Shown: one piece after another, positions 12,556 to 22,334 of the stretch | Layout of the letters: the number at the start of each line of letters is the position of its first letter | Position numbering within the stretch: position 1 is the stretch's first letter | From: Promethearchaeota archaeon | GTDB lineage: Archaea > Asgardarchaeota > Lokiarchaeia > Sigyniarchaeales > SOKP01 | Direction: 5' to 3' | NCBI GenBank assembly: GCA_016930515.1 | Contig: JAFGGO010000119.1 | Span: forward strand, 1 to 41,043 | Length of the DNA: 41,043 bases | Notes under the pieces: model-generated | Told to the model about the DNA's origin: nothing | Database searches by the model: none | Seen by the model: only the letters and a program-made list of their open reading frames with translations | Translations under genes and position numbers: made by a program

Positions 12556-13113
12556 ATGACGACCTACGATTACACGTTCAAAATCCTACTGCTAGGAGAC
12601 GCATCGGTTGGAAAGACATCGTTTACCAAGAGATATTGTTACAACATATTCAACCCCTCGGAAAAATAGGTTTAATTCGAACCTGTTCCGAAAAGGTTAA
12701 CTATTGGGGTTGATTTCCACGTCAAGACCATTGAATTGAAAGAGAAAAAGATCAAGCTCCAGATATGGGATGTTGGAGGGGAAGAACGATTCCGCTTCTT
12801 GCTTCCCACCTATTGCCTTGGAGCGAACGCTGCGTTTCTATTGTACGACACTACTAGGTCTTATACTTTAGATAATATTCCTGAATGGACATCTATCGTT
12901 CGTCAAAAAGGGGGCGATATTCCAATAATGCTTGTAGGGGCCAAGATCGACCTCGCAGCAGACCAAAGAGAGGTCTCCCGCGAATTAGGAATTCAAGTCG
13001 CCGAGAAGAATAACCACGCATCGTTCGTGGAGATTAGTGCGAAAGACAACACGAACGTGTTCAAGGCGTTTGAAGTTCTTTCGGAATTAACATTAGAAAA
13101 AATTGAACAATAA
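12556..13113 (+). CDS. Rab-like small GTPase, split: join(12556..12663,12694..13113), 175 aa after splicing
   Basis: ATG 12556 gives MTTYDYTFKILLLGDASVGKTS (G1). After removing 30 nt the frame reads FNPSERLTIGVDF (G2), WDVGGEERF (G3), GAKID (G4), EISAK (G5). The ORF track captured only 12736..13113. Confidence 0.88.
12664..12693 (+). other. Putative 30-nt bulge-helix-bulge (BHB) mRNA intron
   Basis: Central helix UCGG(12658-61)/CCGA(12688-91); AAA bulges at 12662-64 and 12692-94; intron stem AAUAGGUUU/GAACCUGUU; contains in-frame TAG and TAA. Confidence 0.82.
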
Positions 13114-13125
13114 CGAGGAAAAAAC

Positions 13126-14115
13126 ATGGGAGAAAGCGAATTCATAAAAATTTCAAATGTGTTCACCTCGTTGGACATTATCGAAAAGGGTATCGAAAAA
13201 ATCTATTATTACCTCCTCAAGCACAACAAGATCGAAAACCTCAAAGAAGTGTGCGAGCAATTTGATTTGACTTTAAAACGCGGTTATAAGATTTGTTCGG
13301 TCTTAAGCGACTTAGAACTCGTGCAGATTTACGATAGGCCCATGAAAGTCCTGATCGCCACCCCAATCGCCTCAATTTGGCAAAAGATCATGAACCACAA
13401 GATCGAAGAATTGCGAACTCAATTTCAAGAAAAGCGAAACATTTGCGAAGCCTCGCTTCAAGATTTTCTCAAGAGCTACAACCTTCTGGAAGAGGAACCT
13501 CAAGAACCAGTGGAATTTATTAATTTCGAATCCGGGCAGTTTGAACAAATTAATTACGCGTTTTACTCGAAGAGTTCTAGCAAATTGGCGGTCTGTATCA
13601 AGTATAACAATCCGTTAGTTTCATCGATTCAAGAGGCCATAAAAAGCAAAAAATCTACTGTCAAAGCGGATGTCCTTCCTAATGACCTTAGATCCACTAT
13701 CGTGCAAGGAGTCGAACGAATGAAAAAACACTTGAAAATCATTGATGTCAAGGTCATTTTCAACTCTGAATTGCTCGATTCGCTTGTTAAAAGTAAGGAA
13801 TTTGAAGTTATGTGTGATGTATTGAAGGGTGTTCAGTTGGAATTTAATAAATTCTCCGTGAAAGTCGTCGATGATGATTTCAGTAATTTTTGTCTCATGG
13901 GGGATAACGAACTCGTTCAACCCAGTTTCTCGCCTACTCACGAACTCATTGGGATATACATCTCAAGAAACAAGAACATATTCCAAATCTTTAACGATAA
14001 ATTTAACGAACTCTTCTTCAAGGCCACGCCATTAACAGAATACATTGAAAAAAATGATTTGCTTGAGGGTTTGGCCATTACTGAGCTTCAATCCTTCATT
14101 TTGTGCCTGCTCTGA
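13126..14115 (+). CDS. TrmB-like transcriptional regulator (N-terminal wHTH, coiled coil, C-terminal sensor-like domain)
   Basis: KIYYYLLK...LKEVCEQFDLTLKRGYKICSVLSDLELVQ...RPMKV resembles a TrmB wHTH. Starts 12 nt after the GTPase stop. Confidence 0.6.
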   Translation: MGESEFIKISNVFTSLDIIEKGIEKIYYYLLKHNKIENLKEVCEQFDLTLKRGYKICSVLSDLELVQIYDRPMKVLIATPIASIWQKIMNHKIEELRTQFQEKRNICEASLQDFLKSYNLLEEEPQEPVEFINFESGQFEQINYAFYSKSSSKLAVCIKYNNPLVSSIQEAIKSKKSTVKADVLPNDLRSTIVQGVERMKKHLKIIDVKVIFNSELLDSLVKSKEFEVMCDVLKGVQLEFNKFSVKVVDDDFSNFCLMGDNELVQPSFSPTHELIGIYISRNKNIFQIFNDKFNELFFKATPLTEYIEKNDLLEGLAITELQSFILCLL

Positions 14116-17732: not shown

Positions 17733-17932
17733 GGAATTTCTAACCAGAATCAATATCTTAAAGTATGCATTCTATGACATTCCTTTTTTCTTTAGATAGA
17801 CAGGTACCTAGGCTAAATTATAAATATACTAGAATGGATTAAATTATTTAGGAATTAAATTTTTTTTGTCGAAAAAATCCGTGTTTTTTGAGATCCAAAC
17901 AATTTAAAATATTGAGATACCTCCGAAATCAG

Positions 17933-18338
17933 ATGAACGAGCCTATTGATTCAAGTTCTGAAAATATCATTAATCTGGAATCGTCTAAATCTTTATTGGA
18001 TGTATTATTTCACGATTCGAATTTATTAATCGCCTTGTATAATACGCCTTCAGGGGGAGAAATTTTTATTGGTACGAAACATAAAGAAAATTATATAGAT
18101 GTTTTCGTAAAAGACACGGGTGTTGGGATGATAGAAAAAGAGAAACTGAACCTTTTTCAGGCGTTTGGGAAAATCGAAAGGTACGGAAAAGGTTTAGATG
18201 TTTTTATTGATGGGGTAGGTTTGGGTCTTTATACTTCAAAACAAATCCTAAAAAAAACACGGAGGTAAAATACTCGTTGAATTTAAAGGAAGAAATAAGG
18301 GTTCTCGGTTTACGGTTAGATTATACAAAAATAAATAA
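17933..18338 (+). pseudogene. Internally deleted, frameshifted histidine kinase remnant
   Basis: Short N-terminus joined to HATPase (YNTPSGG...KDTGVG...GVGLGL). One extra base in an A8 run (18250-57), after which HGGKILVEFKGRNKGSRFTVRLYKNK* continues in another frame. Confidence 0.8.
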
Positions 18339-18461: not shown

Positions 18462-21400
18462 TTGGACGAAAAATATAACTTCGTTGAAGGAGAATATAAG
18501 GCACTATTGGACGCATTAACTCGCGGGGGTATTGGAATCGATATCATACGAAAAGATTATGTAATCCTATATCAAAACCAAACCTTAATTGACAAATTTG
18601 GTGATTCTGTGGGGAGTGCTTGCTACGAGAAATATATGGGCCTCACGCGACCGTGCGAGTTTTGTGCAATGGAAAAATCGATAAGAAATAATACTGTGGA
18701 AAAAACCGAATTAAAAGGTACAGATGGAAGAGATTACGAACTTGTATCGGTACCTCTCCCTAATCCCGATGGAAGCATTGATAAGGTCGTGGAGATCGCC
18801 ATTGACTTGACCAAACAAAAGACAATTGAGGAAGAACTGCGCTATAAAGACTACATTATTAATTCTACCGCGAGTGCTATTGCTACATACGACCTTCAAG
18901 GAATAATTAATTTCGTCAATCCCACTTTCGTAAGGATGTGGGGATATAACGATAGTAAAGAAATTTGTGGGAAAAATTTCATAGAATTCTTTAAAAACGA
19001 CCCTGTAGTAATTGAAGCTTTTCAAATTGTTTTAAAAGAAAGATATTGGTTCGGTGAACTAATAGCAAATAGAAAGGATGGAACCCTCTTTGATATACAA
19101 GCTTCAGCAAGCACTGTTTACGATAGCAATGGAACGCCCATAGCATTAATGGCCTCAATTATTGATATTACCGATCGCAAGCATAACGAAGAGCTCTTGA
19201 AATGTTCAGAAGAAAAATTCTTCCTTACATTCCAGGAAAGTATTGTTTTAATGGCCATAAGCACCATAGAGGAAGGTAAATTTATTGATGTGAATAAAGC
19301 ATTATTAAATACTCTTGGTTTTACAAGGGAAGAAGTAATTGGAAGAACTTCGAAAGAGCTAAATTTATACGCGGATTACGCCCAAAGAACGATACTAATA
19401 GATAAGTTAAAAGAATTTGACAATGTCAAGAATTTTGAACTGAATGTGAGGACGAAAGATGGAAGAATTGTCAATGGATTGTTTTCATCTTCAAGAATTA
19501 ATATTCAAGACAAGCCATACGTGCTGTCTATGATGACCGATATTACTGAGCTTAAAAAAGCGGAGCTAAAATTAAAAGAATCCGAAGAACAATTTAGAAT
19601 AATCGCAGAACAATCGCTGATGGGAATCGTCATTATTCAAGACAATAAAATACAATTTATTAACCGCGCTTGTTTGGATATTTATGGTTTAACACTTGAC
19701 CAAGTGAAGATTTTTGGTTTGAACGAATTAATGGAAAGAATACACCCAGATGACAAGGAATTTGTCTATGATCAAATGAGAAAAAAATTGAGTTCTGATC
19801 CAGAACCAGATCTTATGACTAATTATCAATTACGGGCATTAAATCAGTTTGGTCAGATTGTATGGACTGAAGTGTATTCAAAAACAATTACTTTCAATGA
19901 AAAACCGGCAATTTTTATTACATTAATTGATATCAATGAAAAGAGAAAAACCGAAGAAAATTTAAGAGATTCAGAAGAAAAATATCGAAATTTGTTTGAA
20001 AAATCTTCGAATGCCATTATATTGTTTGATATATCAGGAAACATCATTAATTGTAATCCTGCTGCTGAAAAGCTTGTTGGTTATTCATTAAATGATATTA
20101 TTGGGAAAAATTATTATAAATTTTCATTATTCACTCAAAATATTGAAAAAGGCCCTAAAGAGAGATTTCAAGCAATCAACAAAAGCAATGTGGAACCTTA
20201 TGAACTAGAAATAATGAGAAAAAATGGCACTAAAGTAAGAATTAAAGTCGCGATCTCTTATTTTAAAATTGGAGAAGAAGAATATTTTCAAGTGATAATC
20301 GAAGATATTACAGAACGAGCGGATTACGAACAAAAATTAAAAAAATCCGAAGAAAAATATCGCTTGATATCCGAAAATGCTTACGACTTGATTGCAATTC
20401 TCGATAGCATGTTCAAGCACATCTATATTAACGAAGGAGCCTATAAGAGAACCTTGGGATATTCTCAAAAGGACATGCTAGGAAAAATATCCTGGGATTT
20501 CGTTCATCCTGAAGATGTAAAGAGTTTGTTAGGTTCGAAGAACTATAGAGAAATGGATTTGTCAGAATTCAATGAGTTTCAAAAAGAACAACTACGTATA
20601 AGGCGTAAAAACGGCACATATGTTTGGTTAGAATATACAAGCAAGATATTCCTTAACGAGAGCGGTGAAAAAAATGTCATGCTCATAAGCAGGGATATTA
20701 CAGAACGTAAATCATCAGAAAAAGAAATAAAAAGGAGAAACCTTGAACTTTCCGTATTAAATAAGATTATAACCCTTGGTAACGAATTAAACAATCTTGA
20801 AGAATTTCTTTCCAAGGCTTACAACGAAGTGTTAAAAACCGTTAATTTCGACAGGGGGGGGGTATATTTGTACGATCCGGATACCAAACACAATAAACTT
20901 GTATATTATACAAATGTAAATCCTGAATTCATAAAAGCCGTGAATTATATAGACATATCATCCAAGCCTTTTAACATCGTTTTTGATAAAAATGTTCCCT
21001 ACTACATAGAGGATTTTTCTGAATATATGGAAAGTTCTAAATCGCTCGGGGTTCATTCTGCCGTGATCATTCCACTACGCTCGAAAAATGAATATGTGGG
21101 TAGCATGAACTTCGGAGCACCCACTCATCAAGTACTTACGACTCATGAATTGAATTTATTAGTAGCAATAGGAAAACAAATGGGTATTCTTATTCAAAAA
21201 TTTGAGTCAGAACGGTTGCTCAAAGAATCGGAGGAGAAATATCGGTTTTATTTTGAGAATTCCCCAATAGGTATATTTTTATTCGATAAAGAGGGAATTT
21301 TAATCGAAGCAAACACGAATTCTTTTGATTATCTTACGGGACAACCAATATCCATGCTAATTGGAAAAACAATATTGGAGATTGCAAGTTATTTCAAAAA

Positions 21401-22334
21401 CCCTCAGGAACTCGAACAGGAGATTAAAAGAAGAGAATATTTGAGAGCGAAAGGGGAAAAGGAAGTTCCAGTCGAGCTGAGGATCTTAAAACACAATGGA
21501 AAAATAAGCTGGGTGCAATGGAATAGTAAGACTATTTTTATAAAAGATAAGAGATATTTATTAGGGGCCCTAGTGGATATTACCAAACAAAAAAAAGCAC
21601 AAAGATTAATTGTAGAAGAAAACAAAAAACTCCAAGAATTAATAACCATGAGACAGGAACTCGTTACCAGAATCTCACACGAGTTAAAAACGCCGATAAC
21701 ATCAATATATGGGGCATCCCAAGCGCTTTTTGAACTTCACAAGCATGAGATGAGCGATCAAGTTTTCGAGTTTGTTGATATAATGCAAAGGGGGATTAAA
21801 AGGTTGAAAGACCTGGTAGAAAATTTATTGGATGTTTCAAGGCTTGAATCGAGGAACTTTAAAATCAATATTTCTACAGTAAATATTGCTGAAATCATTA
21901 AAGAAAGAGTAAAAGAACTAGATTACATGGCTAGAACCCGAAAACTTAGCGTAGATATATCAAATATAGAGGATATAATTCTCGAAGTGGATAAACTACT
22001 AATTGGTCAAGTAATAACAAATGTCATATCAAATGCAATTAACAATACTCCTCCAGGAGGAACGATTACCATCAGAACCAAGCAATTAAAAGAGCAAGTT
22101 GACATTGTCATCTCAGATACGGGTGTGGGGATAACAAAAGAAGAGAAATCGAGACTATTCAAAAAATTTGGGAAGATAGAGCGGTTTGGACGTGGATTTG
22201 ATGTTTATACTGAAGGATCGGGACTTGGATTATTTATCTCGAACGAATTTGTAAAGCTTCACGGAGGTAGAATGTTTGTCGAATCAAAAGGGCGGAATAA
22301 AGGTGCTATGTTTACGATCCAGCTTTTAAAATGA
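18462..22334 (+). CDS. Cytoplasmic multi-PAS (about 7) / GAF sensor histidine kinase
   Basis: Repeated DITERK/SEEKYR PAS linkers; GAF domain; ISHELKTPI H-box; NAINNT, DTGVG, GSGLGL, HGG. Confidence 0.93.
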   Translation: MDEKYNFVEGEYKALLDALTRGGIGIDIIRKDYVILYQNQTLIDKFGDSVGSACYEKYMGLTRPCEFCAMEKSIRNNTVEKTELKGTDGRDYELVSVPLPNPDGSIDKVVEIAIDLTKQKTIEEELRYKDYIINSTASAIATYDLQGIINFVNPTFVRMWGYNDSKEICGKNFIEFFKNDPVVIEAFQIVLKERYWFGELIANRKDGTLFDIQASASTVYDSNGTPIALMASIIDITDRKHNEELLKCSEEKFFLTFQESIVLMAISTIEEGKFIDVNKALLNTLGFTREEVIGRTSKELNLYADYAQRTILIDKLKEFDNVKNFELNVRTKDGRIVNGLFSSSRINIQDKPYVLSMMTDITELKKAELKLKESEEQFRIIAEQSLMGIVIIQDNKIQFINRACLDIYGLTLDQVKIFGLNELMERIHPDDKEFVYDQMRKKLSSDPEPDLMTNYQLRALNQFGQIVWTEVYSKTITFNEKPAIFITLIDINEKRKTEENLRDSEEKYRNLFEKSSNAIILFDISGNIINCNPAAEKLVGYSLNDIIGKNYYKFSLFTQNIEKGPKERFQAINKSNVEPYELEIMRKNGTKVRIKVAISYFKIGEEEYFQVIIEDITERADYEQKLKKSEEKYRLISENAYDLIAILDSMFKHIYINEGAYKRTLGYSQKDMLGKISWDFVHPEDVKSLLGSKNYREMDLSEFNEFQKEQLRIRRKNGTYVWLEYTSKIFLNESGEKNVMLISRDITERKSSEKEIKRRNLELSVLNKIITLGNELNNLEEFLSKAYNEVLKTVNFDRGGVYLYDPDTKHNKLVYYTNVNPEFIKAVNYIDISSKPFNIVFDKNVPYYIEDFSEYMESSKSLGVHSAVIIPLRSKNEYVGSMNFGAPTHQVLTTHELNLLVAIGKQMGILIQKFESERLLKESEEKYRFYFENSPIGIFLFDKEGILIEANTNSFDYLTGQPISMLIGKTILEIASYFKNPQELEQEIKRREYLRAKGEKEVPVELRILKHNGKISWVQWNSKTIFIKDKRYLLGALVDITKQKKAQRLIVEENKKLQELITMRQELVTRISHELKTPITSIYGASQALFELHKHEMSDQVFEFVDIMQRGIKRLKDLVENLLDVSRLESRNFKINISTVNIAEIIKERVKELDYMARTRKLSVDISNIEDIILEVDKLLIGQVITNVISNAINNTPPGGTITIRTKQLKEQVDIVISDTGVGITKEEKSRLFKKFGKIERFGRGFDVYTEGSGLGLFISNEFVKLHGGRMFVESKGRNKGAMFTIQLLK

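Follow-up and report, generated by a model that had tools for sequence, protein, structure and literature searches.

An intron in the pre-messenger RNA (pre-mRNA) of cbf5 has been described in the Desulfurococcales and Sulfolobales (PMC2738675; Yokobori 2009, citing Watanabe 2002 and Yoshinari 2006), and introns in other archaeal protein genes have previously been predicted (PMC2738675). In Haloferax volcanii, the mRNA of HVO_1309 contains an intron with bulge-helix-bulge (BHB) structure (PMC7714728; PMC10485636). The literature searched confirms splicing by the transfer RNA (tRNA) splicing endonuclease EndA within archaeal coding sequences for cbf5 alone, alongside one Haloferax intron in a 5′ untranslated region (UTR) (PMC2738675, PMC7714728, PMC10485636). 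The non-canonical tRNA introns of Asgard archaea and Thermoproteales likewise possess BHB boundaries and were gained repeatedly and late, with no general arrival route found (bioRxiv 10.64898/2026.10.13.758758). A search covering few subscription journals returned no paper on Asgard mRNA introns, and the word 'intron' does not occur in the text of a 2026 Asgard review. Here, we describe a 30-nucleotide (nt) insert in a Rab-like GTPase gene at 12556 to 13113 of contig JAFGGO010000119.1 (assembly GCA_016930515.1, Promethearchaeota archaeon); the window analysed is the stretch of 41,043 nt from position 1 of this contig. The insert is very probably a tRNA-type (BHB) intron of a protein-coding mRNA, spliced by EndA.

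The GTPase insert shares with the cbf5 intron its short length (30-34 nt, against 16-44 nt in cbf5), its position within a coding sequence at a critical motif and its lack of an open reading frame (ORF), as well as BHB boundaries with (predicted) cuts that fall between nucleotides two and three of each bulge, a two-subunit EndA in the host, and gains and losses across lineages. It differs in phylum and in gene. In cbf5 a single ancient site has been passed down through two orders, with a mostly relaxed BHB; the GTPase intron has a strict BHB, is rare and patchy, occurs at two sites 21 nt apart (both filled in one allele, where a recombination tract is apparent), and has predicted counterparts in several genes. 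Furthermore, cbf5 splicing was shown by cDNA, while that of the GTPase is predicted from sequence. HVO_1309 offers a second precedent for an mRNA as substrate of the tRNA splicing endonuclease, but its intron lies in the 5′ UTR and breaks no reading frame. The Asgard tRNA introns are alike in their BHB boundaries and repeated late gains, but the preprint on them deals with tRNA genes alone and does not contain the word 'mRNA'; the GTPase represents an mRNA target with a visible tract of flanking-exon exchange. The HAC1 and XBP1 transcripts are cut by Ire1 at two stem-loops and not by the tRNA endonuclease, in a stress-regulated and conserved reaction. As is predicted for the GTPase, a short intron is removed without the spliceosome to open a frame and a tRNA ligase joins the exons; the GTPase motif, however, is a BHB for EndA and regulation is not indicated.

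The insert and its predicted fold

The source genome (G000; a Lokiarchaeia-type Asgard) is a metagenome-assembled genome (MAG) of 190 contigs, with 94% completeness and 5% contamination. From ATG 12556 the GTPase frame reads ...FNPSEK*V*FEPVPKRLTIG..., where asterisks denote stops. The features of the split gene are as follows.

12556..12663, + strand: first exon of the Rab-like GTPase, covering codons 1-36 with the G1 P-loop and the beginning of switch I (Pfam Ras positions 1-26)
12664..12693, + strand: candidate BHB intron of 30 nt, carrying TAG and TAA in frame and predicted to form a 9-bp stem that closes on an AAUUC loop (from pairing, 165 insert-free loci and a shuffle null)
12658..12664, + strand: 5′ side of the BHB, comprising UCGG of the central helix and an AAA bulge; the cut is predicted to fall after 12663 (pairing checked)
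12688..12696, + strand: 3′ side of the BHB, comprising CCGA of the central helix, the other AAA bulge and the exon-stem GG; the cut is predicted to fall after 12693 (pairing checked)
12650..12713, + strand: outer exon-exon stem around the intron (in the unconstrained fold, 12650-57 pairs with 12706-13)
12694..13113, + strand: second exon, covering codons 37-175 with the Thr of switch I and the motifs G3 (DVGGE), G4 (AKID) and G5 (SAK) (Pfam Ras positions 31-158, E 7.6e-34)

The sequence-only reading had proposed a 30-nt insert containing TAG and TAA within a BHB; its coordinates and all of the pairs it named were confirmed by a check of the sequence. All pairs of the exon CC/GG stem (12656-57/12695-96) and of the central UCGG/CCGA helix (12658-61/12688-91) are present. 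The AAA bulges (12662-64 and 12692-94) lie on opposite strands and flank the 4-bp central helix, the 9-bp intron stem includes two G-U pairs and closes on the AAUUC loop (12674-12678), and an outer exon stem pairs 12650-55 with 12708-13. With its 2-bp exon stem, outer stem and 9-bp intron stem, the structure is of the strict hBHBh′ type. Taking out 12664-12693, as that reading had predicted from the standard cuts, leaves an open frame of 175 amino acids (aa) in which PSE is joined to RLTIG, and this junction matches that of 165 uninterrupted loci.

The fold of the region (z=-3.8) was more stable than all 200 shuffles. When the insert alone was shuffled 200,000 times, a strict BHB at the equivalent boundary arose in 209 cases, none of which was equally stable. 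A genome-wide scan combining strict BHB geometry with frame restoration ranked this insert first. The Asn-Pro and Gly-Val codons partly account for the outer stem, and 148 of 151 intronless orthologs could already form four to six of its six pairs; this pre-existing potential for an exon-exon hairpin may be why the site accepts introns.

Features of other element classes were not observed. The ribozyme core of hundreds of nt that characterises group I and group II introns is absent from the insert, which comprises 30 nt and one hairpin. No second copy indicative of a miniature inverted-repeat transposable element (MITE), repetitive extragenic palindrome (REP) or insertion sequence (IS) footprint was found in the genome, where the best other match spans 15 nt. 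The inner 23-mer was not found in viral contigs, and whole-genome blastn comparison found no copy of the intron among the tRNAs of the genome.

Orthologs and selection

The junction after codon 36 (site A) is uninterrupted in the 165 homologous loci fetched, which include some repeat fetches from one genome, and nearly always reads FNPSERLTIG. An ortholog was detected in 102 of 135 family genomes, only two of which carry an insert: the source genome and DZ2M.159 (JBHLMB010000034.1; G003), the sister species within the same genus. Two further genomes of that genus, G002 and G005, are without it. The G003 insert occupies the same site and retains a strict BHB with a reshuffled stem, but comprises 31 nt and shifts the frame; stop-codon readthrough thus cannot explain the insert. 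In the gene tree, the G000 and G003 alleles form a supported clade among intronless alleles, so that on the simplest account they diverged with the insert already present.

The two carriers are separated by a synonymous divergence (dS) of 1.79 and a non-synonymous divergence (dN) of 0.079, giving dN/dS of about 0.04. Exon 1 shows no amino acid change between them (dN=0, with a proportion of synonymous differences, pS, of 0.38) and is identical in amino acids to that of G002, G003, G005 and G034. Codons 37-50, which precede the only alternative start (TTG 12736), are likewise without amino acid change. Because exon 1 and codons 37-50 are invariant at this dS, both halves of the gene appear to be translated as one protein, and, judged by these substitution rates, both exons are under strong purifying selection.

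Further alleles, a second site and exchange

A third site-A allele, L212 (ENA ERZ23498480), was reached via truncated database proteins and encodes a GTPase with 75% protein identity. Its 30-nt insert differs in sequence but has an identical junction (shuffle null 2/20,000). The BHB is relaxed, with two mismatches where the intron stem begins, and the loop is AUUUC. Relative to the source genome, its central helix UCAG/UUGA exhibits one G-C to A-U and one G-C to G-U change. Across the three site-A insert sequences, a small set, the central helix is 100% paired with one two-sided and one one-sided change. The intron-derived N-terminus of the L212 type also occurs in a Logan run and in GCA_044240365.1. 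Aligning orthologs, a step the sequence-only reading had put forward, thus yielded inserts with a kept BHB in G003 and L212 alongside intronless alleles in relatives.

A second site (site B) lies 21 nt upstream, after codon 29. In L050 (SDBT01033513.1), which has a close intronless sister (L056), this site carries a 34-nt insert with a canonical BHB (null 2/200,000), and the predicted cuts restore the frame. The same is true of the predicted cuts for a 33-nt insert at site B of L212. Both sites are therefore filled in one allele (L212:17-49, 33 nt, and L212:71-100, 30 nt), with a 21-nt micro-exon between them. Additionally, a paralog (L192; G087:C12:44250-44375) stops at a TAG after codon 27 near the contig end, and possibly contains another insert.

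Comparison of L212 with three intronless relatives revealed 14 differences within 78 nt around the introns, all of them synonymous, against 8-10 differences in the 840 nt beyond the junction region (99% identical). This difference-dense tract of 78 nt points to a short segment exchanged by recombination. The exchange may have run in either direction, introns entering the L212 line or an intronless tract entering its relatives. The intron is patchy and, from the pattern in these alleles, probably spreads by recombination.

Splicing machinery and other inserts in the genome

The source genome encodes two EndA paralogs (on C83 and C30), with both Pfam domains; one possesses the catalytic Tyr/His/Lys motif region while the other lacks the His. 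An (alpha-beta)2 EndA type has been described (PMC6379350), and the sequences of the pair are consistent with it. Many tRNAs of the genome carry introns. ARAGORN reported only about 17 tRNAs, several of them miscalled, which suggests multi-intron tRNAs. It did not report a tRNA-Sec upstream of SepSecS (L195) that contains a 30-nt BHB-type intron in the T-loop (G000:C134:32676-32705, - strand), an intron absent from G002, G005 and G018. A relaxed-scan hit on C134, considered as an intron of SepSecS, was rejected, being this T-loop intron of the upstream tRNA-Sec.

The GTPase insert is not unique in the genome, since similar inserts of 30-32 nt are predicted in pfk, rnhB, iorB and the VIT1 gene. 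Motif repair identified frame-breaking inserts with a relaxed BHB shape in pfk (C126 near 40970, - strand) and rnhB (C58 near 3957, + strand). The relaxed scan identified frame-breaking, BHB-like inserts with Pfam-supported downstream halves in iorB (C186:38987, + strand) and the VIT1 gene (C94:44031, - strand). Homology-free genome-wide searches produced no excess over controls with shifted cuts (strict, 20 versus 13-19; relaxed, 418 versus 386-452); they ranked the GTPase intron first or nearly so, yet passed over the inserts in pfk and rnhB, and are too insensitive for site counts. Similar loops (AAUUC, AUUUC or AUUUUC) recur in the window's GTPase insert, in both L212 inserts and in those of pfk and the VIT1 gene, an anecdotal observation; the AWUUC motif was not enriched in the scan (3 versus 3). 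Among candidates rejected elsewhere, the short open frames in G076, G116, G142, G089 and G150 are contig ends, G042 and G154 are no intron cases, and P0075 and P0088 have no intron but start at codons other than ATG.

Probable splicing and its alternatives

The insert displays the testable features of an EndA-spliced intron, namely BHB geometry, flanking helices, frame restoration, kept structure and an EndA in the host. Following established archaeal biochemistry, the pre-mRNA would fold into the canonical BHB, an (alpha-beta)2-type EndA would cut after 12663 and 12693, and RtcB would join the exons to yield a 175-aa Rab-like GTPase. The common ancestor of G000 and G003 would have gained or imported the intron, and introns at sites A and B would have been gained, lost or exchanged between lineages along with a short flanking exon.

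A number of observations weigh against this interpretation. Searches of the assembly (94% complete) recovered neither RtcB nor archease; G003 and 29 of 30 relatives do have RtcB, which makes an assembly gap the likely reason. A search of the protein collection revealed neither a spliced product nor a full-length protein identical to exon 2. The covariation is of small sample, its pairing level being reached by 11 of 500 shuffles and its covariation score by 50 of 500. The site-B BHB of L212 is weak (null 300/20,000). L212 itself is a short contig end that stops at codon 25, short of the 5′ end of the exchanged tract, and a chimeric end is possible. Lastly, in the source genome a 28-nt slipped register is energetically as good as the 30-nt one.

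This slipped register, absent from the sequence-only reading, arises because the bulges of the G000 allele sit in A-runs that permit the helix to slip. It too is canonical, with cuts after 12664 and 12692, and is frameshifting, with a predicted stability of -18.6 kcal/mol against -17.9 kcal/mol for the frame-restoring register. A 5-bp central helix, also found in the unconstrained fold and likewise not in the earlier reading, scores -18.9 kcal/mol. The slipped register is possible in both G000 and G003, where it could lead to mis-splicing, but would not restore the uninterrupted sequence. In L212 the 5′ bulge lies outside any A-run, so that the frame-restoring register alone is available there. 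Thus, thermodynamics alone is insufficient to choose the cut in the G000 allele, and it is the comparative data that choose it.

Ribosome hopping is exemplified by phage T4 gene 60, and in a translational bypass of this kind the ribosome would take off at AAA 12664-66 before the TAG and land on AAA 12691-93, adding one extra Lys with no splicing at all. The matching AAA codons, the stop codon and the hairpin of G000 and G003 suit such a jump, as does the RtcB missing from the assembly. However, the L212 site-A insert begins with TTT, has no matching in-frame landing codon and has kept a BHB with a compensatory change; the L050 insert likewise is without matching codons, and none of the 165 uninterrupted loci possesses an extra residue at the junction. 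We consider bypass highly improbable. Just as hard to credit is a pseudogene, or a pair of separate products (a 37-aa peptide and a 125-aa protein from TTG 12736) with the hairpin as an insertion scar. Although there are two in-frame stops, only the 125-aa piece is annotated and the genome contains dozens of other small GTPases, the insert is common to two species near synonymous saturation whose dN/dS is nevertheless so low, and the residues ahead of the TTG are invariant. Moreover, the 125-aa piece would lack the P-loop, and BHB geometry of this stability is expected by chance at <1e-5. The probability of an assembly or sequencing artefact is negligible. The origin of the sequence in a fragmented MAG with some contamination leaves room for one, but the independent Logan assembly SRR13394437 has identical gene spacing at the locus, which makes assembler error unlikely, G003 contains a diverged insert, and a distant lineage has an insert at the same site whose product occurs in three assemblies.

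A further proposal adds to splicing instead of replacing it: the intron might be kept as a regulatory switch, coupling expression of the GTPase (and of the gene downstream) to EndA activity. Retention since the G000/G003 split, the slipped register as a productive and unproductive pair of cuts, and the recurrence of the same two sites in separate lineages are in its favour. Against these stand the absence of the insert from 100 of the 102 ortholog-bearing family genomes, its absence from relatives 99% identical to the carrier L212, and similar inserts in unrelated housekeeping genes; we regard the switch as unlikely. The sequence-only reading had held that GTPase expression depends on tRNA-type splicing and had likened this to HAC1/XBP1. 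Orthologs, covariation and selection support the former, as predicted splicing, while the regulatory analogy is unsupported, given the small number of carriers and near-identical relatives that differ in carriage. Inferred from its distribution, the EndA-spliced intron fits a late, tolerated passenger better than a conserved switch.

The host gene and its neighbours

The Pfam Ras match of exon 1 is continued by that of exon 2, and the two exons together supply G1-G5 of the Ras fold. For an intronless ortholog, the best solved relatives (PDB) proved to be Rab3, Rab8 and Rab11, with E about 1e-40. The IGVDF and KLQIWD motifs are shared with eukaryotic Rabs. Unlike them, the GTPase has Glu in place of the G3 Gln (DVGGE), Ala in place of the G4 Asn (AKID) and no C-terminal Cys for prenylation. 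By its motifs the protein is thus Rab-like but no true Rab. The split gene is the sole copy of this ortholog in the source genome, where the nearest paralog is 53% identical. Gene callers annotate only the 125-aa piece. Many intronless orthologs (L207, L209, L003 and others) apparently start at ATA or ATT, and gene callers shorten them to 139-167 aa.

The GTPase is followed by a conserved gene.

13126..14115, + strand: conserved gene separated from the GTPase stop by 12 nt; it is the immediate downstream neighbour in 126 of 138 ortholog loci

This gene has no Pfam family above the cut-off. It is probably co-transcribed with the GTPase, and a failure of splicing could affect its translation. 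In some relatives (L213-L215) the pair stands head-to-head with TBP. Elsewhere in the window, 17888-18268 encodes a short C-terminal piece of a histidine kinase; it is similar to the end of the PAS kinase at 18462-22334 and apparently represents a partial duplication.

Implications

Relative to cbf5, the phylum, the several genes and sites, and the signs of lateral exchange set the GTPase intron apart. We lean towards the view that the Lokiarchaeia harbour a population of ORF-less BHB mini-introns of about 30 nt in coding genes, which would be routinely removed by the tRNA machinery and spread by recombination at fixed sites together with flanking exon. Asgard 'pseudogenes' and truncated gene calls would then conceal intact genes, and a 99%-identical carrier and non-carriers that differ by a short exchanged tract would provide a handle on how BHB introns arrive. 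If true, the archaeal group closest to eukaryotes would possess a multi-gene system of mRNA splicing that works without a spliceosome.
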